This document shows positions 34,850 through 64,000 of a stretch of DNA of 64,000 bases, piece by piece. Made by a program: the position numbers and the translations under genes. The stretch spans positions 259,101 through 323,100 of the forward strand of contig JAWKRB010000006.1 of assembly GCA_041389885.1 (NCBI GenBank), in the 5' to 3' direction. The DNA is from Polyangiales bacterium. GTDB lineage: Bacteria; Myxococcota_A; Polyangia; Polyangiales; Ga0077539. The notes below the pieces were generated by a model. That model searched no databases. It had not been told where the DNA came from and saw only the letters and a list, made by a program, of their open reading frames with translations. Every line of letters begins with the position of its first letter. The first letter of the stretch is position 1.

Positions 34850-34937
34850 CGCGGCAGTATCCGTCAGGGGCGCGGCCCAGCGAAAGGCTCTCGCGAAGAC
34901 TTTGCGCGCGCGCCTCGGGGACCTACCCTGCGCGGCG

Positions 34938-35918
34938 ATGAGCACGGGGATGGCCGAGGCGCTGAGCGATTTCGAAACCTACCTCGCTCACGAACAGCGC
35001 GCGTCGCCGCGCACCGTCGAGCACTACCTCCGCGACCTGCGCACGCTGGAGACCTTTCTGCAGCGAGGCCGCGACGTCGCGCCGACCCTCGGCGACGTGA
35101 CCCTGCTCGCGCTGCGCGCCTGGCTCGGCGAGCGCGCGAAGGGGCGCGAGGGATCTACGATCGCGCGAAACGTCGCGAGCGTTCGCGCGCTCTTTCGTTG
35201 GGCGCGCAAGACAGGACGGGCCGAGCAAGACCCCTCGGCCACGCTGCGCTCGCCCAAGCTGCGACGCCCCCTCCCAGATCTGCTGTCGGTCCCCGACGCA
35301 GGGCGCCTGATGGAGACGCCGGGCACCCGCAGGATCGCCCGACCGGAGGGGGTGGTGCTCCGCGCCACGAGGGCGCGGATCGCGTTGCGCGACAAGGCGA
35401 TGCTCGAAGTCGTCTACGGGAGCGGGCTCCGTATCTCCGAGGCGGTGGGGCTCTCGCTGAACGACATCTCGCTCTCGCCCCGCGCCGCGCGGGTGCTGGG
35501 CAAGGGCTCGCAGGAGCGGATCGTTCCTCTCGGTCGCTCCTGCGTCGAGGCCCTCGAGGCCTGGCTCGCGGTGCGCCACGAGATGGTCGACCCCCGTACT
35601 GGCGCCCAGGACCCCGACGCGCTCTTTCTCACCCGCGCGGGGAGGCGAATCACGGTGCGGCAGGTTCAGCTCTCCTTCGCGGCCTACGGAGAGCTCGCCA
35701 CGGGCACCCCCGGGGTGCACCCGCACCAGCTCCGGCACGCCTGCGCCACGCACCTCCTCGACGCCGGGGCCGACCTGCGAGCGATTCAAGAGCTCTTAGG
35801 TCACTCGTCGCTCTCGACCACCCAGCGGTACACCCACGTCTCCATGGACCAGGTCATGAAGGTCTACGACGGCGCCCACCCCCTCGCGCGCTCTGCCGCC
35901 GAGGGCGACGATCAGTAG
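34938..35918 (+). CDS. xerC: Tyrosine recombinase XerC/XerD family
   Basis: N-terminal core-binding domain (FETYLAHEQRASPRTVEHYLRDL). Catalytic R...HxxR...Y (LRHACATHLL, TQRYTHV). Alternative start at 34950. Confidence 0.7.
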   Translation: MSTGMAEALSDFETYLAHEQRASPRTVEHYLRDLRTLETFLQRGRDVAPTLGDVTLLALRAWLGERAKGREGSTIARNVASVRALFRWARKTGRAEQDPSATLRSPKLRRPLPDLLSVPDAGRLMETPGTRRIARPEGVVLRATRARIALRDKAMLEVVYGSGLRISEAVGLSLNDISLSPRAARVLGKGSQERIVPLGRSCVEALEAWLAVRHEMVDPRTGAQDPDALFLTRAGRRITVRQVQLSFAAYGELATGTPGVHPHQLRHACATHLLDAGADLRAIQELLGHSSLSTTQRYTHVSMDQVMKVYDGAHPLARSAAEGDDQ

Positions 35919-37228: not shown

Positions 37229-37576
37229 ATGCCGACGCGTGAACGATATGTGTGGGTGTGCACCAACCGCCGCCCCGATGGTCACCCCAAGGGGTCCTGC
37301 GGCGAGCGCGGCGCCGAGTCGCTGAAGGACGCGCTGAAGATCGCCTGCGCCAAGGCGGGCCTCGCGCCCCGGGTTCGGGTGATGCACTCCGGGTGCATCG
37401 ACCTGTGCGAGCGCGGCGTCGCCGTCGCGGTGATGCCCGACGACGCGCTGCTGGGAGGGGTGACCCTCGACGACGTCCCCGAGCTCGTCACGGCGCTCGC
37501 GGAGGGCGGCGTGCGGGCGTCGGCGGCGATGCGTGGACGCTCGATCCGCGACGAGGACCCGGGCTCGGGGACATGA
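37229..37576 (+). CDS. Thioredoxin-like [2Fe-2S] ferredoxin-family protein
   Basis: Four Cys with the spacing C-x13-C-x~32-C-x3-C (VWVCTN...GSCGE...SGCIDLCE). Confidence 0.55.
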   Translation: MPTRERYVWVCTNRRPDGHPKGSCGERGAESLKDALKIACAKAGLAPRVRVMHSGCIDLCERGVAVAVMPDDALLGGVTLDDVPELVTALAEGGVRASAAMRGRSIRDEDPGSGT

Positions 37577-38406
37577 GGGCCGCGCTCGCCGCCGCGGTGC
37601 TGTTTGGGTGCGCCTCGCGCCCCCTCCCGCGCGCGTCGGAGCCCGCGCCATCGCGGGCGCCGCTCGACGAGGCCGCAGCCCGGCGCGAGCTCACCGCGCT
37701 CGCGACCTCCCTCGTGGGCGAGAGCCCCGCGGCGCGCGCGGCGGCGAGGGAGCTCGGGGTCGCCCTCGAGGACGCCTCCGGCGAGACGAACCTCGCGGGC
37801 GAGCGAGAGGCCGACGACCAGGTGCGCGGCGCGGAGCTCGTGGTGTGCGCCGGGGGCGTCGGCGCCCTGCTCGTGACGACGCGCTGCGGCAACGCGCAGC
37901 TGGTGTCGCTCCGACGCACCGACCGCTGGCGCGTCGCGCGCAGGGTCGCGCTCATCGACGAGGCGAGGCTGGGCGCGTGCCTGCTGAGCGCCGCACGCGC
38001 CGAGCCCGCCGCGGTGATGGGCGCCGCGGCGACGGAGATCCTCGCGGCCTGGAGCGCCGAGCGCGAGGACGGCGACAGCGAGCGCGCGACGGTCTTCGGC
38101 GTGTTTCGCGTCGACGCCGAGGGCGGGCTGGTCGACCTCACCGGGCGCGTGCCCTTCGGGGGGGAGGACGACGCGACCGGCGCCGCGCGCGAAGGGCGCT
38201 GGTTCGTCGACGACGTGCTGCCCCCGCCGAGGGACGTCGTGCTCGAGATCCGACCCGCGCGCCGTGGCGTCGACGGCGTCGCGCTCACCCAGATCGAGCG
38301 CCAGGTCTGGAGGCCCTCGGGGCACAGGCTCGTTCGGGTGCTCGCGGAGTCTACCCCGATGCAGCCCCCCGCGACGTCGTCGACGCGCCTCGCGCCGTCG
38401 CCCTGA
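37573..38406 (+). CDS. Hypothetical lipoprotein
   Basis: ATGA coupling with the upstream gene. Signal plus lipobox LFGCAS. No recognised domain. Confidence 0.45.
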   Translation: MRAALAAAVLFGCASRPLPRASEPAPSRAPLDEAAARRELTALATSLVGESPAARAAARELGVALEDASGETNLAGEREADDQVRGAELVVCAGGVGALLVTTRCGNAQLVSLRRTDRWRVARRVALIDEARLGACLLSAARAEPAAVMGAAATEILAAWSAEREDGDSERATVFGVFRVDAEGGLVDLTGRVPFGGEDDATGAAREGRWFVDDVLPPPRDVVLEIRPARRGVDGVALTQIERQVWRPSGHRLVRVLAESTPMQPPATSSTRLAPSP

Positions 38407-38429
38407 GTTGCTATAAACCCCTGTCGACC

Positions 38430-39329
38430 ATGCGCTTATCTTGGATGTTGATCGCGGGCCTCGCCGCAGGGTGCGCTGAAGAGCGCGCCTCCCCGACCGC
38501 CGACGCCGCGGTCGACGCCGCGGGGCAGCCCGCCTACGACACCGCCGCGGCGGGCGACGTCGCCCCCTCGGAGCCCTGCTCCCTCGGCGGCACGGGTCGC
38601 CTGCGCGTGGCCGTCACCCTCGACCCGCTGCTGATGCGGCGCGCGCCCGAGGTGTGGCTCTCGGCGCGCTGCGGCAGCGACGACCGCGAGCTCCGGGTCG
38701 TGCGGTGGGATCGCTCGCCGTCGATGGTCCTCGATGGCTTCGGCCCCGGCGCGTACTCCGTGGTCGCTTCGTCGTTCATCGCGGCCCCGGCCCGCACCGC
38801 GCGCATCGACCTCGACCCCCGCTCGACCGCGTCGCTCAGCGTCACGCTCCCGGGTGAGCCCGCCGCCCTCGCGGTGGTGCGCGCGGGGGGCGCGGGCGCC
38901 GCCGACGCCGGGCTCGCGCGCCCGGACGGCGCCGTCGTTGAAGGCGACGGCGGGGCGCGCCCGAGCTGGTCGGGGCGCGTGGCCATCGACGGTACGCCCG
39001 GCGCGGCCGCCCTCGGGAGCGTCGAGGTCGACGCCGTGCAGGCCTCCGAGAGCGCCATCGAGCTCCGGGTCGTCGTGCGAAACACCTGCGCGACCTCGGC
39101 GTGCCCGGCGATTGTGCTCGCCGGGGCCGAGGCGCGGGCGCTCCTCGGCGACGTCCCCACGGGCGTGGCGGAGGGTCGCTTCGACCGCCCGCAGATCCTC
39201 GCGGGGGAGTCTTCGGCGCTCGTCGAGCCGATCTCGCTTCGCGGCGCGCTGCCGGGGGCCCAGGGCGCGCTGCACCTCGCGGTCTACGGCGTCGTGCGGG
39301 CGCCCGGAGCCGCGGCGATGCGACCCTGA
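38430..39329 (+). CDS. Hypothetical lipoprotein
   Basis: ATG at 38430, preceded by an unusual AT-rich gctataaacc. Signal plus lipobox LAAGCAEE. Confidence 0.45.
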   Translation: MRLSWMLIAGLAAGCAEERASPTADAAVDAAGQPAYDTAAAGDVAPSEPCSLGGTGRLRVAVTLDPLLMRRAPEVWLSARCGSDDRELRVVRWDRSPSMVLDGFGPGAYSVVASSFIAAPARTARIDLDPRSTASLSVTLPGEPAALAVVRAGGAGAADAGLARPDGAVVEGDGGARPSWSGRVAIDGTPGAAALGSVEVDAVQASESAIELRVVVRNTCATSACPAIVLAGAEARALLGDVPTGVAEGRFDRPQILAGESSALVEPISLRGALPGAQGALHLAVYGVVRAPGAAAMRP

Positions 39330-39386
39330 ACGCCGCCGTCGCGCGGCGTGGACGCGCGGGGCCCCGTGCGCAATGATGCGCGCGAA

Positions 39387-40673
39387 ATGGCAGATGAAAT
39401 TTCCCGATCCCTTCACGCGCGAGCGGTCCAGAGAATCCCCGGAGGGGTGAACTCCCCGGTGAGGGCCTTCAGGGCCGTCGGCGGCGAGCCGATCTACATC
39501 CAGCGCGCCGAGGGGGCGCACCTCATCGGCGCCGACGGCGCGCGCTACATCGACTACGTGGGCTCCTGGGGCCCGATGCTCCTCGGCCACGCCCGCGCCG
39601 AGGTCGTTCGCGCGATCTGCGACGCGGCCGCGTCGGGCACCAGCTTCGGCGCGCCTACGGAGCGAGAGGTGGTCTTCGCCGAGCGGCTCTGCGAGATGAT
39701 CCCCTCGCTGGAGATGGTGCGGCTGTGCTCCAGCGGCACCGAGGCGTGCATGAGCGCGATGCGCCTGGCGCGCGGGGCCACGGGGCGGGAGAAGATCTTG
39801 AAGTTCGAGGGCTGCTACCACGGCCACGCGGACTTTCTCCTCGTGAAGGCGGGCAGCGGCGCGGCGACCTTCGGGGTGCCCGACAGCGCGGGCGTCCCCG
39901 CGGATGTCGCGCGGCACACCCTCACCGCGCGCTACAACGACCTCGCGGCGGTCGACGCGCTGCTCGCCGAGCACGGCGCCGACCTCGCCGCGATCATGCT
40001 CGAGCCCGTGGTCGGGAACATGGGCTGCGTGCCCCCGGCCCCTGGCTTTCTCGAGGGGCTCGCGGAGCGCTGCCGTCGCGTCGGCGCGCTGCTGGTCTTC
40101 GACGAGGTGATGACCGGCTTTCGAGTCGCGCGCGGCGGCGCGCAGGCGCGCTACGGCGTGCGGCCCGACCTCACGACCCTCGGCAAGATCGTGGGCGGGG
40201 GGATGCCCCTCGCGGCCTTCGGCGGTCGGCGCGACGTGATGCAGCACCTCGCGCCCGTCGGCCCGGTCTACCAGGCGGGCACGCTGTCGGGGAACCCGGT
40301 GGCCACGGCCGCGGGGCTGAAGACGCTGGAGCTCTTGTCGGAGGACGCGGAGCTCTACGACCGCTTGGAGCGCACCGGCGCCGCGCTCGAGGAGGGGCTC
40401 CGGGCCGAGGCGAAGCGCGCGGGGGTGAAGGTCACCGTGCAGCGCGTGGGCGCCATGTGGACGGTGTTCTTCGGCGTCGATCAGGTCACCGACTGGGACA
40501 GCGCGCGCCGCGCCGACAGCGCCGCCTTCGGGCGATTTCACCAGGCGATGCTGGCGCGGGGCGTCTACCTCCCGCCGTCGCAGTTCGAGGCCGCGTTCCA
40601 CGGCGCGCTGCACGACGAGGTCCTCGTCGAGCAGACGCTGCGCGCGGCGCGCGAGTCGTTCGCGCAGGTCTGA
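39387..40673 (+). CDS. hemL: Glutamate-1-semialdehyde 2,1-aminomutase
   Basis: GGVNSPVRAF, the PLP-lysine region TLGKIVGGGMP, and overall class-III aminotransferase architecture. Confidence 0.85.
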   Translation: MADEISRSLHARAVQRIPGGVNSPVRAFRAVGGEPIYIQRAEGAHLIGADGARYIDYVGSWGPMLLGHARAEVVRAICDAAASGTSFGAPTEREVVFAERLCEMIPSLEMVRLCSSGTEACMSAMRLARGATGREKILKFEGCYHGHADFLLVKAGSGAATFGVPDSAGVPADVARHTLTARYNDLAAVDALLAEHGADLAAIMLEPVVGNMGCVPPAPGFLEGLAERCRRVGALLVFDEVMTGFRVARGGAQARYGVRPDLTTLGKIVGGGMPLAAFGGRRDVMQHLAPVGPVYQAGTLSGNPVATAAGLKTLELLSEDAELYDRLERTGAALEEGLRAEAKRAGVKVTVQRVGAMWTVFFGVDQVTDWDSARRADSAAFGRFHQAMLARGVYLPPSQFEAAFHGALHDEVLVEQTLRAARESFAQV

Positions 40674-53781: not shown

Positions 53782-55077
53782 TCAGCGGGGCTCCCAGCGC
53801 AGGGTCTCGCCGCCGCCGCCGAGGATCCGCTGTTGATTCAGCCCGTCCTGGTTCATCAGGTAGATGCCGCCGCGGCTGGAATTGAAGGCGATGAGCCGAC
53901 CGTCGGGCGAGAAGGTGGGATCGGTGTTCGTGCCCTGGTTCTCGGTGAGCCGGCGCGTCGCGCCGCTCGCGACGTTGACGGTGTAGATGTCGGTGCTGCC
54001 GCCGACGCGCCCTGAGTACACCAGCAGCTGGCCATCGGGGGACCACGAGGGCGAGGTGTTGTAGGTCCCGGTGAAGCTCACCCGCCGCGCGCCGCCGCCG
54101 CTGGCGCTCATCACGTAGATCTGCGGTCCGCCCGCGCGATCGCTCACGAACGCGATGCGGGAGCCGTCGGGGGACCACACCGGCGAGACGTCCGCGCCAG
54201 CGTCGTTGGTGACGCGCCGGAGGTTCGCGCCGTCGGTGCCCCCCACGTAGATCTCGCTGTTGCCGTCGCGCGTGAGCACCACGGCCATGCGCGACCCTGA
54301 GAACGCCGCGCCCATGACCAGCCCGTCGGCGCGGAGGATCGGCTCCCGCGAGCCCTGACGGAACAGCGCGAGGAATCCCTCGGGCGTCTGCGATGAGAAG
54401 TAGATCCCGCCCGGGCCCCACGCGGGGAGGAACGAGAGCCTTCGCCCCGACGAGACCTGCGCGAGGTTCTCTCCGTCGCAGTCGACGGTGAACACGGCCT
54501 TGCGCCCTCGGCCCGTGCGCCGCGCGAAGGCGATGCGGGTGCCGAAGATCCCCGGGGTCTGGGTGTAGAGCTGGATCAGGTCGTTGGCGATGCGGTGCGC
54601 CACCGCGCGGGGGCTCGCTGGACCGTACGAGCGAGAGAGCCGCGGCGCAGAGGGGGCGCCGGGCTCCCACACCCGCAGCTCGACGCGCGTCGCGTCGCCG
54701 CTGCCGGTGCTGCTGCCCTTCACCACGGCGGTCGCGCCCACGCCCGCCCAGGAGCCGGCGTTGATGTTCAGCCCCTCGGCGTCGAGGTCGGCGGTGAACG
54801 AGTGCGGGTCGAGCACGCGAAAGAGCGACGAGAGCCGCAGGTCGTTGGAGAGAACCGCCGAGATCTGGTCGCCGCCGGGGCCGCGGAGCGCGGGGATCGC
54901 GACCGGAAGGAGCCGCGACTCCAAGCCCTGCAGCGAGACCGTGATGTCGCCACCCCCCGCGGGGACCTGCGGCGCGGGCGCTTGAGGCGCCGGCTGGGCG
55001 ACGGAGATGTAGGGGGGGAGCAGGGCCAGTCCCGCGGCGACGCCGACCAGCGACCAGGATTGGAGGGTTCTCTTCAC
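53782..55077 (-). CDS. tolB: TolB periplasmic beta-propeller protein
   Basis: Signal peptide, TolB N-terminal domain, and repeated SPDG/SWSPDG beta-propeller blades. Confidence 0.8.
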   Translation of the reverse strand: MKRTLQSWSLVGVAAGLALLPPYISVAQPAPQAPAPQVPAGGGDITVSLQGLESRLLPVAIPALRGPGGDQISAVLSNDLRLSSLFRVLDPHSFTADLDAEGLNINAGSWAGVGATAVVKGSSTGSGDATRVELRVWEPGAPSAPRLSRSYGPASPRAVAHRIANDLIQLYTQTPGIFGTRIAFARRTGRGRKAVFTVDCDGENLAQVSSGRRLSFLPAWGPGGIYFSSQTPEGFLALFRQGSREPILRADGLVMGAAFSGSRMAVVLTRDGNSEIYVGGTDGANLRRVTNDAGADVSPVWSPDGSRIAFVSDRAGGPQIYVMSASGGGARRVSFTGTYNTSPSWSPDGQLLVYSGRVGGSTDIYTVNVASGATRRLTENQGTNTDPTFSPDGRLIAFNSSRGGIYLMNQDGLNQQRILGGGGETLRWEPR

Positions 55078-55116
55078 GGCTTCAACTCTAACGGACGGCG
55101 CGAGGGGGCGCGATCT

Positions 55117-55980
55117 TCATTGCGACTCGGGCTCGACGTTCACGTTGATGTTCCGGTCCGCGAGCTGCGCGAGCTCCTCGGGCGACAGGCCCGGGATCTC
55201 CGCGTGCTGCGCGACCAGCCGCTGCGCCTGCGCGACGTAGTCGTTGTCGAGGCTCTCGTTGCCCGAGGGCTGAGACAGCTCGGCGCCCACGATGGTGCCC
55301 GACCCGCTGATGCGCAGGCGAAATCGAACGCGGCGGCGGTCGCTGCCCGTGAGGGTCTGCGTGCGGTGAATGTTGCGCTGCAAGAACTCCTGCAGCTTCG
55401 CGATGGCGCCGTGGCTGGCCTGGCTCGGGTCGGTGGTGGTGCCCACCGCGCTGCCCGTCGCGGCGCCGGGACCCGCCGCGGTCGGGTCGGCGGCCTGCTC
55501 CGCCGCGGCCATCTGGGCGATGCGGTCCATGGTCTCCGCGAGGTCCTGGTTGCCCCGGCCGCGCACGGTGCGTCGGGTGATCGCGGCCATGTAGTCCTGC
55601 GCGCCGGCGTCGGGTCGCAGCGCCACCGCGGTGGGGTCTCGCACCGGGGTGATCGCCGCCGGCGCCGCCCGCTCGGCGCGCACGGGCGCCTCGCGATGAA
55701 TCACGCGCCTCGGGTCAAAGCTCCCGCCCCCGCGTCGCAGCAGCTGGGTCGAGACCACCAGCTCGTCGCGGCGGGGCGGCGGGGTGCGCGCGACGTTGCC
55801 CTCGTCACGGCCAAGGCGAAGCGCCGCCCCCGCGACGGTCGCGTGCACCAACACCGCGAGGAACACCCCCGTCGCCACGCCCCCACGGTCGTTCGTCCCT
55901 GTCTCCACCCCGCCGCGGCGAAGAGGAGAAGGCGGAATCGACGGCGACGACGGGAGCGAAGGCGGAATCGAGGGCGTCAT
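55117..55980 (-). CDS. tolA: TolA/TonB-family protein (energy transducer)
   Basis: Pro/Ser-rich N-terminus, a TM segment, a long charged central region, and a TonB/TolA-like C-terminal domain. Position between tolR and tolB. Confidence 0.5.
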   Translation of the reverse strand: MTPSIPPSLPSSPSIPPSPLRRGGVETGTNDRGGVATGVFLAVLVHATVAGAALRLGRDEGNVARTPPPRRDELVVSTQLLRRGGGSFDPRRVIHREAPVRAERAAPAAITPVRDPTAVALRPDAGAQDYMAAITRRTVRGRGNQDLAETMDRIAQMAAAEQAADPTAAGPGAATGSAVGTTTDPSQASHGAIAKLQEFLQRNIHRTQTLTGSDRRRVRFRLRISGSGTIVGAELSQPSGNESLDNDYVAQAQRLVAQHAEIPGLSPEELAQLADRNINVNVEPESQ

Positions 55981-56033
55981 GAGGCCTCCTGAGCCTGTCA
56001 GGGTCTGTACCAGAATCCCGGTCACCCTTGGGA

Positions 56034-56197
56034 TGTGTACAAACTGTGTACAAAGCTGGTCCGTTGACGGGGGAGATGGTCAAAAAATGATGCACATGGG
56101 CAAAAATTGATGCTCTACAGACGAGGCCGAGATCGCGGATTCTCCGCAAATACTGGGTGTCGGACCCTTGGCATCGTCCATGCACAATGATTGTGCA
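56034..56197. promoter_or_regulatory. AT-rich divergent intergenic control region: tandem TGTGTACAAA x2 (56034-56054), TTGACG, direct repeats GGNCAAAAA(A/T)TGATGC(A/T)C x2 (56078-56115), and the 17-bp palindrome TGCACAAT-G-ATTGTGCA (56181-56197)
   Basis: Read directly. The region is strongly AT-enriched relative to the ~72% GC background and lies between tolA (-) and the ECF sigma gene (+). Confidence 0.5.
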
Positions 56198-56228
56198 ACA
56201 CGGCCCCTACGCCGACGGAGATTACGCC

Positions 56229-56822
56229 ATGGATGCCCAGACGACCGCTTCAGCCCGTTCGACCGACCTGATCCCTGTGACAGCCGACATTCGTAAGACG
56301 GTCGAAGCTGCCTTTCGATCCTACGAGTCCCGGCTGTTTCACACGGCGCTTCGCATCACCCGCAACGACCAGGACGCGTGGGACGCCGTGCAGGAGGGCA
56401 TGGTCAGCGCCCTCCGCAACGCCGAGCGCTTTCGCGGCGACTCGGCCGTCGCGAGCTGGCTGTACAGCATCGTGGTCAACGCCGCGCTCTACCAGCGTCG
56501 CCGCGCCACCTCGCGCCGCCGCGGCATGGACCGCTTCGTCGAGAAGGTCTGGCCCGACGCCGAGCTCTCCCTCGAGGCGGGTACGGTGCAGCACGACCCC
56601 GAGGCGCACCTGATGGCCAAGATCGACCTCGACCGGGTCTCCGACCGCATCGCCGAGCTCCCCGCCGACCGCCGCGAGCTCCTCGAGCGCGCGCTGGGCG
56701 GCGACTCGTTTCAAGACATCGCCGACTCCATCGGCGAGCCGGTCGCGGCGGTGAAGAGCCGCGTGTGGCGCACCCGGGTCGGTCTCCGCGCGGAGTTCGG
56801 CGAGACCCTCGCGGCGGCCTGA
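56229..56822 (+). CDS. ECF (sigma-70 family group IV) sigma factor
   Basis: Region 2 (AAFRSYESRLFHTALRITRNDQDAWDAVQE) and region 4 (LPADRRELLERALGGDSFQDIADSIGEPVAAVKSRVWR). ATG at 56229 chosen; the upstream extension contains the palindrome. Confidence 0.7.
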   Translation: MDAQTTASARSTDLIPVTADIRKTVEAAFRSYESRLFHTALRITRNDQDAWDAVQEGMVSALRNAERFRGDSAVASWLYSIVVNAALYQRRRATSRRRGMDRFVEKVWPDAELSLEAGTVQHDPEAHLMAKIDLDRVSDRIAELPADRRELLERALGGDSFQDIADSIGEPVAAVKSRVWRTRVGLRAEFGETLAAA

Positions 56823-56825
56823 GCG

Positions 56826-57266
56826 CTACTGAGAAGAGACGGGGTCGGTGACGATCCCGAGCTTCTCGACCCCCGCCTCGCGCATCATCGCGAGCACCCG
56901 CACCACCACCCCGTACGACACGCTCTCATCGGCCTGCAGGTAGGCCTCGTGGTCTCGCTGCACGATGGCGTTGGCTCGCAGTCGCTCGGTGAGGCGCTCG
57001 ATGGGCACCTGGTCCTGCCCGACCCAGATCACGATGGGCGAGCGGGGGTTGTTGAGCTCTTGATGCCCGAGGGTGATCTGGAGCTTCTGGTCCCCGACCT
57101 GCATCTCGGGCGCGTTGGCGTTGGGGAGGTCGACCTTCATGCCGGCCTGCACGAGCGGCGCGGTCACCATGAAGATGATCAGCAGCACGAGCATGACGTC
57201 GACCAGCGGCGTCACGTTGATATCGCTCATGGGGCCGCCGCCCCCGCCTCCGGATGTGAACGCCAT
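56826..57266 (-). CDS. tolR: ExbD/TolR biopolymer transport protein
   Basis: Single N-terminal TM (VTPLVDVMLVLLIIFM) plus an ExbD periplasmic domain. Confidence 0.8.
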   Translation of the reverse strand: MAFTSGGGGGGPMSDINVTPLVDVMLVLLIIFMVTAPLVQAGMKVDLPNANAPEMQVGDQKLQITLGHQELNNPRSPIVIWVGQDQVPIERLTERLRANAIVQRDHEAYLQADESVSYGVVVRVLAMMREAGVEKLGIVTDPVSSQ

Positions 57267-57285
57267 CGGTCGCCTGCCTCTCAGC

Positions 57286-58020
57286 TCACTTGAGGATGTG
57301 CCGACGGACGATGTTCAGGAAGTCGTTCCCGAAGATGTCCATCTCGTTGGAGATCACGCGGATCTGCCGCACGAAATAGTTGAAGCCGATCACCGCGGGG
57401 ACCGCGGCGACGAGGCCGACGGCGGTGGTGAACAGCGCCTCGGCGATGCCCGGGCCGACCCGGTCGATGGTGCTCGACCCCTGCGCGCCCGTGAGCTGCA
57501 AGAACGCATGCATGATCCCGTACACCGTGCCGAACAGCCCGATGAAGGGCGCCGTGCTGCCCGTGGTCGCGAGGAAGGGCACCATGCTCTCGAGGATGGT
57601 CGTCTGCCGCGAGGTCGCCCGGCGCAGCGCCCTCTCGATGTTGCCGATGTCCGCCGCGGCCTCGTCGTCGGTCGACGCGGCCTTGACCCGCAGCAGCTCC
57701 TCGTAGCCGGCCTTGTACATCTGGGCGACGGGGCTGCGCGTGAAGCGCGTCGCGGCTTCGGCGGCGATGTTGAGCTGCCGGGTGTCTTCGAACACCTTCA
57801 AGAACGACTCGTTCTCCGCGAAGGCCCGCCGGATGTACAGCCACTTGTAGCCGATGATGTACCAGCAGATCACCGAGAACAGCAGCAGGATGAAGAGCAC
57901 GACCTTCACCGGCAGCGTCGCCTGCCAGATCAGGTCGAAGGTGCCGGGGATCGCGGTCGGCGCCCGACCCCCCTGCTGCTGGTGCATGTGGACCAGGTAC
58001 CCGTAGATCACATGGTTCAT
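57286..58020 (-). CDS. tolQ: MotA/TolQ/ExbB proton-channel protein
   Basis: Three TM helices. Conserved C-terminal TAPFIGLFGTVYGIMHAF motif. Confidence 0.8.
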   Translation of the reverse strand: MNHVIYGYLVHMHQQQGGRAPTAIPGTFDLIWQATLPVKVVLFILLLFSVICWYIIGYKWLYIRRAFAENESFLKVFEDTRQLNIAAEAATRFTRSPVAQMYKAGYEELLRVKAASTDDEAAADIGNIERALRRATSRQTTILESMVPFLATTGSTAPFIGLFGTVYGIMHAFLQLTGAQGSSTIDRVGPGIAEALFTTAVGLVAAVPAVIGFNYFVRQIRVISNEMDIFGNDFLNIVRRHILK

Positions 58021-58166
58021 GAAGGTCGCACGGGGGTATCGCCGCAGGTGCACCGCTGTCAATGCGTGGCGACGCTTGCGACGGCGACTCGGTACGGTTC
58101 AGACTGCGCCGGGTGCGCGGAGACGAAGAGAGAATTCGGTACCAGACGCCCACGGTGACCCGAACC

Positions 58167-58817
58167 ATGAAGGTCCTGTCGGCGGCCCTCGTGGGGATCT
58201 GGCTCCTCCAGGTGTTGACGAACTCCGCCGAGGTCCCCTTTGGCGCGTTTCGCTGGCTGACCCTCAAGCCCAGCGCGGTGCTCGAGGGGCACGAGCTGTG
58301 GCGCGTCGCGACCTACGCCGTGCTCGGCAACCCCGCCGATGTCGTCGCCATCCTCCTCGACGTGATGATCCTGCTGATCTTCGGCTCGGCGCTCGAAGAG
58401 CGCGCGGGGAGGGGGCGGGCCCTCGCCGCGATGTTCGCGGTCAGCGTCTTCGGCGCCCTCGCCGTGCTCGCCGCCAGCCGCGTCGACCTGTCGCTCCTGC
58501 ACGCCCAGGTGGTGGGGTCCTCGGCGGCGATGTCTGCGCTCATCGTCGCCTGGGGCGTGCAGCGCGCCGAGGAGCGCCTGAGCTTCTTCGGCGCCTTCGA
58601 GCTGCGCGGCAAGCACTTCGCCATGGTCGTCGCGGCGATGACGGTCGTGAGCTTTCTGCTCAACCGCAGCGGCGCGCACGTCGCGTCGGTCGCCGGGCTC
58701 GTGGCGGGACTCTTCGTCGCGCGCCTCGGTCCCCGCACGCCCAAGGCGCCGCCGCGCAAGCGGGTCGGGGGCCACCTGCGGGTCGTGCCCGAAGACCCCA
58801 AGCGCTACCTGAACTGA
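58167..58817 (+). CDS. Rhomboid-family intramembrane serine protease-like protein
   Basis: Six TM helices. GSSAAMSAL (GxSG-like) and AHVASVAGLVAG (catalytic His helix). Confidence 0.55.
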   Translation: MKVLSAALVGIWLLQVLTNSAEVPFGAFRWLTLKPSAVLEGHELWRVATYAVLGNPADVVAILLDVMILLIFGSALEERAGRGRALAAMFAVSVFGALAVLAASRVDLSLLHAQVVGSSAAMSALIVAWGVQRAEERLSFFGAFELRGKHFAMVVAAMTVVSFLLNRSGAHVASVAGLVAGLFVARLGPRTPKAPPRKRVGGHLRVVPEDPKRYLN

Positions 58818-58826
58818 GCGCGGCGG

Positions 58827-61101
58827 TCAGGCGTCGCCGCGCCAGGGGCGGTCGGACTCGTACTCCTCCTCGAGGTCGTCGGCCAGGGCCGCGCGCACCT
58901 GCGCGGGCAGGTCGTCGAGCGCGATGCGGGTGCCCTTCGCGCGCCGCACCGCGTGCTCGATCGCGGCGTCGAGCTCGTCGAGGTTGCCCGGCCAGCGGTA
59001 GCTCCGGAGCGCGAGCGCGGCCTCAGGGCCGACCCCCAGCGCCGCGCGGCCGTGCACCCGGCACGCGCGGTCGATCGACAGCAGCGTGAGCGACTCGAGG
59101 TCCTCGATCCGCTCGCGGAGCGGGGGCACCCGCACCGTGCGCTCGGAGAGCATGTCGAGCAGCGCGCGAGGGAGGTCGAAGCGCTCGGGTCGGTCGCGCA
59201 TCGTCACGACGACGCGCACGTCGACCGCGTAGCCGTGCTCGGCGCCCAGGCGCCGCGACGTGCCCGTGCGAAGCGCGTCGACGAGGGCGACCTGGGCGTC
59301 GTGTCCCAGCGCCGGGAGGTCTTCGAGGACCAGCGTTCCGCCCGCGGCGTGCTCCAGCCAGCCCGCGCGCTCGGGGCTCTCGCGGGCGTCGCCCACCAGC
59401 GCCGCGAGCAGCCCGTCGAGGCGCGCGCCCCCGGCGTCGAGGATCACGAACGGAGACGCCGCGCCGGGGCCCTGGTCGTGCAGCACCTTCGCGATCGCCG
59501 CCGCGCCCGCTCCTCCCTCCGACACGAGCGCCACAGGACCCCGCATCGAGAGCGCGATCGCCTTGTCTCGCAGCGACCTCGACGTCGCCGCGTACGCCGT
59601 CCAGCGCTCGTCGCGCTCGCCCAGCGCCCGCATGCGCCTGGCGCCCTCGTGGAGCGCGACGAGCCGCTGGGTCTCTCGCGACGCCTCGACCGCGAGGCGG
59701 TCTGCGCCCTCGGCGCGGGTCACGGCCTCGTCGGCGCGGGCGCGCGCGGTCGAGCGCCGCCAGCATCGAGACCACGCCCTCGACGCGCAGCGCGAGGGCC
59801 TCGACCCGGAGCTGCTCCTCGTAGCTCGGCACGGCGGTGCGCGCGCCGCGAGGGATGAGGATCGCCCCCACCAGCTCCTCCCCCTCGCGCAGCGGCACCG
59901 CGCCGAGCGCGCCGAGCTCGTCGAGCGCGGAGACCAGCGGGCGCAGCTCCGCGCGGCGCACCTCGTAGGGGCGGAGCGTGTCGGTGAACACCGCGCCGGG
60001 GCGCGCGCGCATCCACGACAGCACCGGCCGCGCGGTGTCGAGCCCCAGGGTCGCGCGCCGGGCCCCGCCGCTCACGTCGATGTGCAGCGCCTCGCGCTTG
60101 TTCAAGAGCCAGATCGCCGCGGGGGCGCGGAGGTTGCGGGCCGCCGCGCGGAGCGGGTCGAGCACGGCCGCCGCGAGGTCGATCTCGTCGCGGACCGCGG
60201 GCAACAGGCGCTCGACCTCGTCGCACGCGTCCAGCAGCCGGCCGTCGTCAGGGCGGAGCCGCCTCTCGAGCACCGGGATGAGCGCGAAGGTGGTCGCCAG
60301 GGCCACGCAGACCGCGAGCAGCGGCACCGAGGGGAGCGCGAGCGCCAGGGCGCCCCCCGCGAAGAGACCCGCCAGCGCGGCCGCGCTGCGACGCGCGAGG
60401 AGGGCCGAGCGGTCGAGGCCGAGGGCGCCGGTGCCGGCGGTGAGGCCGATGACCTGCGCCGAGGCGCCTGCCGCGAGCACGAGGGGGGAGACGTCGCGGC
60501 CCCACATCGCCCGCACGAGCATCGCCGCCGCGAGGATCGCCGCGCCGACGCCCGGCGCGATGAGCCGCGCCCGCTCCATGGGCATGAGGGGTCGGCGCAC
60601 GGCGTGGAGGTGGTAGAGCGCGCCGAACGCGCTCGCGCCGAACGCGCTGTACGCGCCGAGGGACCAGTCTCGCGTTGCGGCTGGCCACATGGCCAGGGTC
60701 GCGAAGCCGCCCACCAGCAGTCCCGGCAGCGCCGCGCGGCGAAGCGTGTCGACGCGCAGGGGGAGCGCCGCGGCCATCGCCGTCGCCACCCCGAGCACCT
60801 CGCCGAACAGGATCGCCTGCACCACCCGGAGCGCGTGCGTCGGGGGAACGGTGCCGGCCACGGTGGTCGCGACCAGCGAGGCCGCGAGGGCGCCGGTGAT
60901 CAGCGCGGCCTCCGCGGCGACGGGCGCGATGGCCGCGGCGGCGCGTCGGGGCGCGAGGGCGCACACGCCCGCGAGCGCGAGCGTGGCGGCGCCCTCGAGG
61001 GTCACGGGCCGACCCGAGAGCGACCACGCGGAGACGGCGACCCCCGCGCTCATCAGCGCGGCGAGCTCGCTCCAGGGCGCTCTCTCTCGTAGGGGTGACA
61101 T
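58827..61101 (-). CDS. Membrane (~8 TM) - GAF-like - degenerate sigma-54-activator-type AAA+ domain protein; frameshift in a (CG)n tract near 59738-59752; no DNA-binding domain
   Basis: ATG at 61101 with GAGGAG RBS. Frame A runs to ...VVSMLAALDRAR. Frame B runs from ...ADEAVTRAEGADRL... to the stop at 58827. AAA+ motifs: Walker B GGTLVLEDL, RFDLPRAL, PPLRERIEDL, YRWPGNLDELD. Walker A is SEGGAGAAA with no Lys, and there is no GAFTGA. Confidence 0.5.
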
Positions 61102-61169
61102 CGCGGGGCTCCTCGCTTGCCCGGCCGACGCTATGCCGACTCAGGGGCGCGCGCAAAGCACGCGCACGG

Positions 61170-62420
61170 TCAGGCGGGCTCGGCGACCATCGATGAGGCG
61201 GCGTGGTCGGTCTGCGCGTGAAAGCGGATCTCGGCCATGGTGCCGAGCTCCGTGAGCGCGTCGACGGCGTGCTGGAGCTCTTCCCAGGTGTGCCCGCGGG
61301 TGACGTTCACGCGCAGGCGCTCCTCGCCCACCTTCACGCCGGGATAGGTGATGGGGACCATGTGCAGCCCCTGCTCGAAGAGCAGGTGGTGGAGCATCAT
61401 GGCCTTGCGCTCGTCCTTCACCATCACGGGCATGATGTGGGTGTCGCTGGTCCCGAGGTCGAAGCCCCGCTCGACGAGGCGCGCGCGGAGCCACGCGGCC
61501 TTCTCGTGGAGCTCCGCCACGAGCGCGGGGCCGTCGTCTTCGAGCATCGTGAGGATCGTCGCCGCCGCGGCGACCACCGGCACCGGGAGCGTGGCCGAGA
61601 AGACGAAGCTGCGGGCGGTGTGCTTGATGAGGTCGATGACCTCCTCGCTCCCGAGGATGATCCCGCCGATGCCGCCGAAGACCTTGGAGAAGGTCGACAC
61701 CACCACCGGCGCGCGGCCCTCGAGGTCGAGGTCCTCGAGCACGCCGCGGCCGTGCTTGCCGAGGGTCCCCGAGCCGTGCGCGTCGTCGACCACGAGCGCG
61801 GCGCCGTAGCGGTCGCAGACCTCGATGATCGGCGCCAGCGCGCCCTTGTCGCCGTCGAGGGAGTAGATCCCCTCGACCAGCACCAGGGCGTTGGGGCGCT
61901 CGCGGCTCTTGAGCACGCGCTCGAGGGAGCGCGCGGAGTTGTGGTTGAAGAACCGAACCTCCGCTCCCCGCCCCGGCACCCCCGCCGCGAGGAACGACCC
62001 GTCGAGGATGCAGGCGTGCGAGAGGTTGTCGAGGATCAGCGTGGTGTCCTTGTCGGCCAGGGACATCACCGTCGCCACCATCGCTTGGTACCCCGTGGTG
62101 GTGACCAGGCAGGCGGGGAAGCCGAAGAACTTCGCGAGCCGCGCCTCGATCTCGACGTGCGCCGTGGTCGTGGCCTGCACGCGCGACGACGACAGCCCGC
62201 ACGCGAACTCGTCGACCGCGCGCTTCGCGGCCTCCTTCACGTCGGGGTGGTTGGTCAGCCCGAGGTAGTCGTTGGAGCTGAAGTTCACGAAGGGGTGACC
62301 GGCGACGGTGGTCCTGAGCCCGCCGGTCTCAAAGGCGCGAAAGAAGGGGTAGACCCCGGCCTCGCGGGCCTCGCGCACGCGGGCCAGATCCCGGTGGGCC
62401 TTGTCGTCGATCCAACTCAT
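61170..62420 (-). CDS. Alpha-oxoamine synthase family PLP enzyme (AONS / serine palmitoyltransferase / KBL-like)
   Basis: ATG at 62420 with GAGGAAG RBS. PLP-lysine motif STFSKVFGGIGG. DDAHGSG and NDYLGL motifs. Confidence 0.75.
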   Translation of the reverse strand: MSWIDDKAHRDLARVREAREAGVYPFFRAFETGGLRTTVAGHPFVNFSSNDYLGLTNHPDVKEAAKRAVDEFACGLSSSRVQATTTAHVEIEARLAKFFGFPACLVTTTGYQAMVATVMSLADKDTTLILDNLSHACILDGSFLAAGVPGRGAEVRFFNHNSARSLERVLKSRERPNALVLVEGIYSLDGDKGALAPIIEVCDRYGAALVVDDAHGSGTLGKHGRGVLEDLDLEGRAPVVVSTFSKVFGGIGGIILGSEEVIDLIKHTARSFVFSATLPVPVVAAAATILTMLEDDGPALVAELHEKAAWLRARLVERGFDLGTSDTHIMPVMVKDERKAMMLHHLLFEQGLHMVPITYPGVKVGEERLRVNVTRGHTWEELQHAVDALTELGTMAEIRFHAQTDHAASSMVAEPA

Positions 62421-62427
62421 CGCTTCC

Positions 62428-63606
62428 TCACTTTGCGCGCCGCACCACGAGGGCCGACGCATTGCCATAGAACCCGAGGGCGGTGATCACCACCGTGTCG
62501 ATCCTGGGAGGGATCTCCCCCGAGACCCCGTCCCTCACCGCCGCGCCCTCGAACCACCCGAGCGCGCAAGCCAGCGCCAGCGCGCCGCTCGCGCCGAAGG
62601 TCTCGCCGAGCCGCGCCTTGGGCGCGCACACCGCCGCCGCGGGGAGCGCCGCGGCGATCGCCGCCCGCTCGGCCTCGTCCAGCGCCGGCTGACCGCAGAG
62701 CCCGCTCACCACCAGGTCGACCTCGCCCGGCGCGACGCCCGCGTCGTCGAGCGCCTCGCGAATCGCCCGAGCCAGCGCCGTCGACGAGGGCGCGACCAGG
62801 TGCGGCGCCGCGGCGTCGTGGTCGAACTGGGAGCCGTAGCCCACGAGCTCCCCCAAGACCCTCGCGCCCCGCGCCGCGGCGTCAGCGGGCGACTCGAGCG
62901 CGAAGAGCGCGGCGCCCTCGCCGAGGGTGATCCCCGCGTTGGGAGGGTGGCGCTCGTCGCCCTCGCAGGCCAGCGCGCCGACGCGCAGCAGGCTCTCCCA
63001 CAGCAGCTCGCTCGACGCCTCGGCGCCGCCCGCGACGATCGCCCGCGCGCGGCCCGCGTCGAGGTAGACCCCCGCGCAGCTCATCGCGTCGAGGGGCCCC
63101 GTGGGCCCGTTGGTGACGGTCACGTTGAGCGCGCGCAGCTCCTCCCAGATGCTCACGTACCCGAAGGCCGAATTGATCACCGTGTTGGGGAAGCGCGCGG
63201 GGTTCAGGTACCGCGGGTCTTCGGTCTTCGCGATGCGGTTGTTCTCCGCGACGGCCTCGGTGCTGCCGTAGGCCGTCGACGCCACGACGCCCACGCCGTC
63301 GCCGTCGTACGACGTGAACGCGCCGCCGGCCTTGATCGCTGCGTGCTCGAGGCAGAGCCGGGCGGCGACGATCGAGAGCCGGGTGAGCCGGTCGTTGTTG
63401 CGCAGGCCCTTGTCGCCGACGTACCGCGCGGCGTCGAAGCCCGCGACCTCGGCGACGCGGAGCGCGGGGTGCGGCGAGCGCGGCACCGTCGCGGGCGCGC
63501 GCGAGAACTCCGCCGGGGCAGGGGAGCCGAGGGCCTCGACGAAGGCCGACCAGCCCACGCCGAGGCTCGACACGACGCCGACGCCGGTGATCGCGACGGG
63601 CTTCAC
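62428..63606 (-). CDS. Beta-ketoacyl synthase-like protein lacking the Cys-His-His triad (chain-length-factor/KS-beta-like partner)
   Basis: Thiolase/KAS fold (GVGVVSSLG...; AIVAGGAEA). At the active site it has TNGPTGPLDAM where Cys is expected. The His motifs are replaced (SGLCGQPALDE; KARLGETFGASGAL). ATGA coupling with the upstream KAS. Confidence 0.6.
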   Translation of the reverse strand: MKPVAITGVGVVSSLGVGWSAFVEALGSPAPAEFSRAPATVPRSPHPALRVAEVAGFDAARYVGDKGLRNNDRLTRLSIVAARLCLEHAAIKAGGAFTSYDGDGVGVVASTAYGSTEAVAENNRIAKTEDPRYLNPARFPNTVINSAFGYVSIWEELRALNVTVTNGPTGPLDAMSCAGVYLDAGRARAIVAGGAEASSELLWESLLRVGALACEGDERHPPNAGITLGEGAALFALESPADAAARGARVLGELVGYGSQFDHDAAAPHLVAPSSTALARAIREALDDAGVAPGEVDLVVSGLCGQPALDEAERAAIAAALPAAAVCAPKARLGETFGASGALALACALGWFEGAAVRDGVSGEIPPRIDTVVITALGFYGNASALVVRRAK

Positions 63607-64000
63607 GACCGCGCTCCAAAGGCCGGCAGGCGACCGGGGCGGGCGATGCAGAGCACCGCGTCGTATCCGCCGAACGCGAGGGCGTTGTTGAGCACGACAT
63701 CGACCCTCGCCTCGCGCGCCGCGTTGGCGACGAGGTTCAGGTCACACTCGGGGTCGGGCGTCTCGTAGTTCATCGTGGGGGGGATGATCCCGGTGAGGAG
63801 CGTCTCGACGCAGCTCACGGCCTCGAGGGCAGAGGACGCGCCCATGCAGTGCCCGATGACGCTCTTGACGCTGCTCACGGGGGGCCGGCGCGCGCCGAGC
63901 ACCTCGGCGATGACCTTGGACTCGACGCTGTCGTTCGCGGCGGTGCCGGTGCCGTGCGCGTTCACGAAGTCGACCTCGGAGGGGTCGAGCCCCGAGCGCG
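63603..64000 (-). CDS. Beta-ketoacyl-ACP synthase (KAS I/II type), C-terminal part; the 5' end lies beyond the window end
   Basis: MNAHGTGTAANDS (first His motif) and SVKSVIGHCMGASSALE (Lys/His motif). Open frame to position 64000. Confidence 0.7.
   Translation of the reverse strand, partial: RSGLDPSEVDFVNAHGTGTAANDSVESKVIAEVLGARRPPVSSVKSVIGHCMGASSALEAVSCVETLLTGIIPPTMNYETPDPECDLNLVANAAREARVDVVLNNALAFGGYDAVLCIARPGRLPAFGARS

Follow-up and report, generated by a model that had tools for sequence, protein, structure and literature searches.

At 58827–61101 of a 64-kb window (the whole stretch of 64,000 nt analysed here, part of a Polyangiales metagenome-assembled genome, MAG), the complementary strand harbours a gene that is distributed over two reading frames (Table 1). 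Once two absent bases are put back, it encodes a predicted polytopic membrane protein with a GAF domain and a degenerate AAA+ domain of the type found in bacterial enhancer-binding proteins (bEBPs), known from textbooks as ATP-driven activators of sigma-54. Located upstream in the same orientation are genes for a β-ketoacyl-ACP synthase (KS; ACP, acyl carrier protein), a KS-like protein and an α-oxoamine synthase (AONS); downstream follows a convergent gene for a rhomboid-family protease.

Table 1 Features of the split gene and its surroundings (residue numbers refer to the restored protein; TM, transmembrane; ORF, open reading frame; HTH, helix-turn-helix)
Feature	Position	Strand	Remarks
Whole gene	58827–61101	-	758 aa if 2 absent bases are put back; orthologues 750–768 aa
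Frame A part	61101 down to ~59746	-	ORF 59023–61101, 692 aa
Frame B part	~59745 down to 58827	-	ORF 58827–59723, 298 aa; stop codon 58827–58829
Frameshift site	~59733–59752	-	CG-rich tract CTCGACCGCGCGCGCCCGCGCC (coding strand); 2 bases absent near 59745/59746 relative to L024, L002 and L006
Polytopic membrane domain	60259–61074	-	residues 10–281; ~10 TM helices (AlphaFold2)
GAF domain	59842–60252	-	residues 284–420; alpha/beta fold (AlphaFold2) and Pfam matches of relatives
Long continuous helix linking GAF to AAA+	59619–59823	-	residues 427–494 (68 residues); AlphaFold2
Degenerate bEBP-type AAA+ domain with lid	58881–59588	-	residues 505–740; Pfam, AlphaFold2
Walker A remnant SEGGAGAAAIAKVLH	59478–59522	-	aligned on GESGTGKELIAxxIH; Lys to Ala, first Gly to Ser
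L1 loop remnant GDARESPERAG	59361–59393	-	5-residue deletion at bEBP (GA)FTGA position
Degenerate Walker B TLVLED	59319–59336	-	Glu-Asp instead of Asp-Glu
Acidic C-terminal tail DDLEEEYESDRPWRGDA	58830–58880	-	17 residues after the lid, disordered; sits where relatives have a Fis-type HTH
AONS (BioF/Kbl/SPT family)	61170–62468	-	68 nt upstream of the gene, same strand
KS-like protein	62428–63606	-	fabF 143.5 bits, a weak match as compared to 387 bits for the adjacent KS in L001
KS, 3' part	63603–64000	-	runs off the window; 85 % identity to the C-terminal part of the KS in L001
Rhomboid-family intramembrane protease	58062–58817	+	convergent, downstream, 9 nt away; Pfam Rhomboid 46.7 bits

Split reading frame and nature of the lesion

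The start codon of frame A (ATG at 61101) is preceded by a Shine-Dalgarno-like GGAG motif at a spacing of 7 nt. The frame A ORF encodes a hydrophobic, well-behaved protein up to '...VVSMLAALDRAR', followed by an Arg/Gly/Pro-rich read-through stretch which is typical of out-of-frame high-GC sequence; the AAA+ part is encoded in the other frame by the ORF 58827–59723. The frame plot of GC content at third codon positions (GC3) switches phase at 59760–59820, no intergenic gap being visible; frame A remains open for ~770 nt past the end of its coding signal. A preliminary description of the locus, made from the sequence alone, had let the two frames join within a CG tract. This is borne out by a global alignment with the nearest intact relative (P0174 at locus L024; 758 aa, 94 % amino acid and 90.5 % nucleotide identity), in which one 2-nt gap represents the sole indel across 2277 nt. 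The loss falls at ~59746 within CTCGACCG--CGCGCGCCCGCGCC, its exact spot inside the CG repeat being ambiguous, and thereby inside the long helix of the encoded protein. In the orthologues the junction reads LDR(A/S)RARA(D/E)(E/A)AV, at the level of both DNA and peptides.

A search of 5.8 billion proteins retrieved 17 full-length homologues (754–767 aa, 44–77 % identity, 96–100 % coverage), in all of which the two halves are continuous. The 18 loci obtained from species-representative genomes all belong to MAGs of uncultured Polyangiales or other Myxococcota. Uninterrupted ORFs of 750–768 aa are present in 20 loci (from species-representative genomes and exact-protein look-ups) and in L024, amounting to 21 intact orthologues. 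As judged from this comparison, the two frames represent a single gene.

With locus L001 as outgroup, 13 nonsynonymous and 61 synonymous codon changes were assigned to the window branch and 10 and 34, respectively, to the intact L024 branch, both halves of the gene being alike in this respect. The gene has thus been under purifying selection until essentially now. Accordingly, the lesion arose very recently or stems from the assembly, and it is neither programmed nor phase-variable.

An error of assembly or consensus, with the organism actually forming the full 758-aa protein, has in our estimate an even chance. The single 2-nt gap resides within a CG-repeat tract of a window with 72.5 % GC content, nonsynonymous changes are not in excess on the window branch, and other MAG loci display clear frameshifts in well-conserved neighbours: tblastn located AONS split over frames in L002 (6704–7922), L013 (5509–6781) and L015 (6646–7883), and likewise TolQ in L015 (11077–11848), indicating that indel errors are common in assemblies of this group. 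On the other hand, the GC3 frame plot together with inspection of one ambiguous region (37300–39400, two separate lipoprotein-like genes without frameshift) yielded no further frameshift-like gene in the 64 kb, arguing against a generally indel-ridden assembly, and a 2-nt gap is unlike the typical homopolymer error. Furthermore, reads or independent assemblies of the strain were not found: exact look-up of the 298-aa protein for a second assembly returned no contig, junction-spanning pattern scans of JGI metagenomes no match, and a scan of species-representative genomes for the same strain only relatives of at most 72 % identity.

A real and recent loss of function, i.e., an incipient pseudogene or a variant occurring within the population, comes close to this in probability, and we rate the two explanations about equal. 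In this case, the gene product would be no more than a truncated TM-GAF protein ending in an out-of-frame tail, possibly plus a 298-aa AAA+ fragment starting from GTG at 59723. The available sequence is indeed out of frame, slippage at short CG repeats could plausibly give rise to such a mutation, and the C-terminal piece has been annotated by NCBI as a protein of its own (MEZ4390133.1, 298 aa, from a Polyangiales MAG). However, secondary lesions and signs of relaxed selection are absent from the window copy, and all 21 orthologues are intact. Independent of the origin of the lesion, the deposited name of the C-terminal piece ('sigma 54-interacting transcriptional regulator') overstates the sequence evidence, and its gene model conceals the frameshift.

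Phase variation, i.e., the (CG)n tract serving as an on/off switch of the gene, had been offered in the preliminary description but is very improbable, since, despite an indel of exactly one repeat unit in a dinucleotide-repeat-like tract, this tract comprises only ~4 CG units, the site differs and is interrupted in orthologues (GACCGCTCCCGCGCC in L024, CGCGCCCGCGCCCGCGCC in L006), and 21 of 21 orthologues are in frame.

Domain architecture and degenerate AAA+ motifs

The domain organization of the restored protein was derived from an AlphaFold2 model (22-sequence alignment, mean pLDDT 87.3) combined with profile searches, which support the membrane and GAF-like domains proposed earlier for its N-terminal part. 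The membrane domain has very short outer and Arg-rich inner loops, suggesting that both termini are cytoplasmic, and leaves almost no external surface. A Pfam search with this domain returned no family match. A retinal-binding function of the TM domain was considered and rejected, as the conserved residues of the TM-domain alignment include no Lys. The alpha/beta domain that follows is a GAF domain: while the window protein itself has no direct match to Pfam GAF, the aligned region of the relative P0020 scores 26.9 bits (cut-off 22.4) over profile positions 2–130 of 133, and GAF is matched at E ≤ 1 in 6 of the 22 members. The long helix connecting this domain to the AAA+ module probably forms a coiled coil or serves as a signalling helix.

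The assignment of the C-terminal part to the sigma-54-activator-type AAA+ domains, previously based on motif resemblance, is corroborated by matches of the joined protein to Pfam Sigma54_activat (PF00158; 49.6 bits, cut-off 20.2, E 4.6e-13) and AAA_lid_14 (49.5 bits, cut-off 27), accompanied by partial matches below threshold to numerous NCBIfam bEBP equivalogs. Core and lid are homologous to the bEBP AAA+ clade in both sequence and fold, and the matches by structure and sequence include VpsR and NtrX. In agreement with the earlier reading, no HTH family was matched in the joined protein; among the aligned members, HTH_8 was matched only in P0018, P0020 and P0021. The tails of the HTH-less proteins are conserved in their acidic character, with runs of Asp and Glu and mostly ending in [GD]DA (RGDA, HDDA, LDDA; alignment A1).

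The catalytic and contact motifs of the AAA+ domain were read column by column from HMMER alignments to NifA, DmpR and NtrC1 and from a 29-sequence family alignment. In the Walker A motif, the window protein reads SEGGAGAA as compared to GESGTGKE in bEBPs, and the alignments to NifA, DmpR and NtrC1 place Ala at the position of the Lys, confirming the reported loss of this residue. Conservation of this exchange in orthologues had been proposed as a check: the Lys is present in none of the 29 family members, which have A, V, S, L, P, I or D instead, and the P-loop sequence is not conserved within the family (e.g., EPGAGAAAVAR versus AAVGVSVRPAAG).

At the position of the sigma-54-contacting GAFTGA motif (bEBP consensus GHEKGAFTGA), the window protein contains 'ARES' followed by a 5-residue deletion. 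The L1 loop is gone in every family member, the deletion being common to all except P0018, which carries an unrelated insertion there. Thus, GAFTGA is indeed lost, but its supposed replacement by ALVGDA was misplaced, since this segment aligns with ELFGHE, one motif off. Similarly, the segment GGTLVLEDL cannot be maintained as an intact Walker B motif, because Asp-Glu reads Glu-Asp; across the family, this pair varies widely (ED, EH, EN, EE, SS, CD, VD, ER, AD). In the region of the Arg fingers, LPRALLDMLS aligns to FREDLYYRLN with Pro and Met at the two Arg positions, and both Arg residues are lost in the relatives too. In sensor II, GNLDEL corresponds to GNVREL of bEBPs with an exchange of Arg for Asp, some family members keeping the Arg.

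These losses are not restricted to the window copy but are present in all 29 compared members, including those with an HTH, and the orthologues possess neither GxxGxGK nor GAFTGA. Accordant results were obtained with a regular-expression screen of 173 retrieved proteins, where most soluble bEBPs displayed GE[ST]GxGK[ED], GAFTGA-like and GGTxxLDE motifs and the TM-bearing family none of them. The family-wide loss, evident from the 29 sequences and the screen, indicates that the Lys-to-Ala change is ancestral. As far as can be judged from the sequence, the protein is incapable of canonical ATP hydrolysis and of contacting sigma-54 via a GAFTGA loop, and it has no HTH. Its predicted ATPase-dead and sigma-54-independent character, already assumed in the preliminary description, is in line with the loss of Walker A and B, Arg fingers and GAFTGA, and the protein lacks every functional hallmark of a sigma-54 activator that can be tested.

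Family, ancestry and gene neighbourhood

A profile search over 1.84 billion representatives was used to delineate the wider family, the following figures referring to the best 150 profile matches. The HTH-less clade (754–767 aa) is small and stands beside ~100 clusters (at 50 % identity) of proteins with 800–860 aa, whose matches extend over nearly the full profile. In Myxococcota, these longer relatives share the TM region and equal motif losses and carry a C-terminal Fis-type HTH (HTH_8, 41–48 bits); HTH-bearing members include P0018, P0020, P0029, P0033 and P0043. According to these sequence matches, the HTH-less clade nests in a larger, uncharacterised Myxococcota family.

Five HTH-bearing loci were inspected (L005:8001–10541, L025:6001–8562, L026:6001–8436, L027:5001–7409 and L028:5001–7403). 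A Ser/Thr kinase gene adjoins the HTH-bearing gene in four of them, divergently oriented in L005 and L025 and on the same strand in L026 and L027. Genes for TolQ and TolR adjoin it in L026, L027 and L028, joined by a rhomboid gene in L026 and L027. The order in L027 (3375–12409) is Ser/Thr kinase, HTH-bearing P0029, rhomboid (-), TolQ, TolR, ECF (extracytoplasmic function) sigma factor (-), one more gene and TolB. On the 3' side of P0029 this order is the same as in the window (53782–61101), identifying the window gene as the positional counterpart of the HTH-bearing gene; the kinase is located 6 nt from P0029, at the place taken by KS/KS-like/AONS in the window. The five loci examined thus show descent of the family from membrane-anchored relatives with a Fis-type HTH and an equally ATPase-dead AAA+ domain by prediction. 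The clade of the window protein has lost the HTH and has KS/KS-like/AONS upstream instead of the kinase.

The location of the gene directly downstream of the KS/KS-like/AONS genes on the same strand, as described previously, is confirmed by the AONS gene ending 68 nt upstream. This arrangement recurs in at least 16 of the 19 loci of the HTH-less clade whose upstream sequence is long enough to be informative, down to 43 % protein identity, with gaps of 51–68 nt between AONS and the gene where measurable. The AONS protein scores alike on models for BioF, Kbl and serine palmitoyltransferase and reaches no equivalog cut-off (NCBIfam bioF 306 bits, serine palmitoyltransferase 294 bits). The KS-like protein may be a chain-length-factor-like, inactive partner of KS. 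The ORF of the KS-like protein and the longest AONS ORF have 41 nt in common; AONS comprises 416 aa in L001 and L024, as compared to 432 aa for the longest ORF here. Further upstream, two ACP genes and a gene for a ~1400-aa protein without family match are present in L001 and L004. In most loci, AONS is conserved at ~77–92 % identity, as compared to 43–77 % for the membrane AAA+ gene.

Past the rhomboid gene, the window contains genes for TolQ, TolR, an ECF sigma factor and TolB. In L008, L018 and L021, extra DNA is found between the membrane AAA+ gene and the downstream rhomboid gene, and none between the former and AONS; L007 contains the KS-AONS-gene block without rhomboid or TolQ within 8 kb downstream. 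The adjacency of KS and AONS is consistent with a link of the membrane protein to the KS/KS-like/AONS pathway, such as the regulator or sensor role put forward earlier, without proving it. Since the rhomboid gene is convergent at a distance of only 9 nt, rhomboid-mediated release of the cytoplasmic part of the protein was also considered. This idea was rejected, because the rhomboid gene travels with TolQ rather than with the membrane AAA+ gene (L008, L018, L021) and the HTH-less product would have no DNA target.

Possible function and relation to known systems

Taken together, the window protein is probably a member of a conserved Polyangiales family of inner-membrane proteins, composed of ~10 TM helices, a cytoplasmic GAF domain, the connecting helix, a dead bEBP-type AAA+ domain and an acidic tail, which would function as a signal transducer or scaffold rather than as an activator; the window copy of the gene carries the recent or artefactual 2-nt lesion. 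Being presumably unable to activate sigma-54 or to bind DNA itself, the protein would most likely act as a membrane-tethered transducer or scaffold, where an intramembrane or GAF-bound signal may be passed along the helix to the dead AAA+ module, and this module would act solely by protein-protein contacts. Candidates for such contacts are the enzymes and carrier proteins of the co-directional KS/KS-like/AONS operon, or alternatively, in view of the family ancestry, an HTH-bearing paralogue or a kinase. The former are slightly favoured because of the operon-like adjacency.

Several points weigh against this interpretation. Its mechanism is deduced, for every family member, from domain logic and gene neighbourhood. 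The KS/AONS adjacency is missing in L003/L011 and L012 and, where present, could reflect inherited synteny among related genomes; moreover, the most deeply conserved neighbourhood is that of Tol-Pal and rhomboid (rhomboid/TolQR/ECF sigma/TolB) rather than KS/AONS. The loss of canonical motifs may be compatible with non-canonical binding of a nucleotide or second messenger, and c-di-GMP is bound on the same fold by FleQ and VpsR, as stated in the titles of PDB entries. Finally, if the frameshift is real, the window copy may yield no functional protein.

An alternative function of the dead AAA+ domain would be that of an anti-activator or co-factor, which would assemble into mixed oligomers with either a canonical bEBP or an HTH-bearing paralogue and retain this partner at the membrane, so that transcription would be affected instead of the KS/AONS enzymes. 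We consider this unlikely, though with some merit: the bEBP fold and lid are well kept despite the lost catalytic residues, HTH-bearing paralogous lineages of the same architecture occur in Myxococcota, and RedR2, held at the membrane by BtdS, is a documented case of a bEBP controlled by membrane sequestration (PMC10084136). However, no other bEBP was found to be encoded in the window, and the genes most strongly conserved next to those of the HTH-less clade code for enzymes rather than regulators.

Four sites resembling sigma-54 promoters (TGGCAC-N5-TTGCW, at most two mismatches) were detected in the window as compared to 13.4 expected by chance, and none of them is situated near the adjacent genes; the window does not reach as far as the KS operon promoter. 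Thus, although Sigma54_activat scores above the Pfam threshold, there is hardly any prospect of a still working sigma-54 activator that employs non-canonical residues, given the lack of the Walker A Lys, Walker B, both Arg fingers, GAFTGA and HTH, a P-loop that is not even conserved within the family, and the paucity of promoter-like sites. The sequence TGGCATCGTCCATGCA (56169–56184, +), located where the ECF sigma factor ORF (56157–56822) begins, has GG-N10-GC spacing and two mismatches to the sigma-54 consensus. A scan of 58000–64000 for sigma-70 promoters and terminators revealed nothing useful.

The membrane-tethered transducer or scaffold envisaged here may be compared with several known bEBPs. 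NifA, FhlA and PexR of M. xanthus are canonical bEBPs with an N-terminal GAF domain; in contrast to them, the window protein possesses a 10-TM anchor and lacks the Walker A Lys, the Walker B Asp-Glu, the Arg fingers, GAFTGA and the HTH. A bEBP fold without functional GAFTGA is shared with VpsR, TyrR, NtrX and the NtrC proteins of Rhodobacter and Caulobacter, which act independently of sigma-54. These are, however, soluble transcription factors with a DNA-binding HTH, unlike the membrane-integral, HTH-less window protein with its non-conserved P-loop. TyrR binds ATP. NtrX was crystallised with ATP according to the title of its PDB entry, and VpsR 'lacks conserved residues' required for canonical function (PMC6158489).

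In lacking an HTH, the window protein resembles a further group of bEBPs, which act by protein contacts without a DNA-binding domain, namely FleT of Rhodobacter sphaeroides (acting jointly with FleQ), FlgR of Helicobacter and CtcC of Chlamydia. In contrast to the window protein, these are soluble, have kept active ATPase motifs as well as GAFTGA, and activate sigma-54. The closest resemblance is to the HTH-bearing membrane homologues of 800–860 aa, which share the TM-GAF-helix-degenerate AAA+ architecture and the motif losses with the window protein but differ in their C-terminal Fis-type HTH_8 and in the usual vicinity of a Ser/Thr kinase gene instead of KS/AONS; these homologues are themselves uncharacterised. 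In the open-access literature searched (for membrane-integral, ATPase-dead bEBP homologues, pseudo-ATPase bEBPs and the KS/AONS cluster), neither a description of this family nor one of a 10-helix membrane fusion to a bEBP homologue was found.

Known exceptions among the bEBPs have dropped one or two features of the class, i.e., GAFTGA in VpsR, TyrR and NtrX or the DNA-binding domain in FleT, FlgR and CtcC. The family studied here has dropped both the ATPase site and the sigma-54 loop, and in the window clade also the DNA-binding domain, yet is well conserved. Current labels such as 'sigma 54-interacting transcriptional regulator' or 'DNA-binding NtrC family response regulator' are unsupported by the sequence. 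If the proposed role as signal transducer or scaffold holds true, the protein would represent a clear case of a bacterial AAA+ pseudoenzyme reused as a membrane signalling module, and would provide a handle on the uncharacterised KS/KS-like/AONS pathway in uncultured Polyangiales.

With considerable reservation, one may even speculate that Myxococcota hold a sizeable bEBP-derived family of integral membrane proteins which are ATPase-dead and devoid of sigma-54 contact. Its ancestor might have been a membrane-tethered factor with a Fis-type HTH, operating together with a Ser/Thr kinase at a rhomboid/Tol-Pal locus. Upon loss of the HTH in one Polyangiales clade, the protein might then have become a membrane sensor or regulatory subunit of the KS/KS-like/AONS pathway (presumably leading to an amino-lipid or sphingoid-like product), with the AAA+ shell serving purely as a signalling scaffold.

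Apart from this locus, the window encodes an 847-aa protein (32402–34945, -) in which N-terminal HEAT repeats are fused to a T2SSE (type II/IV secretion ATPase) domain.

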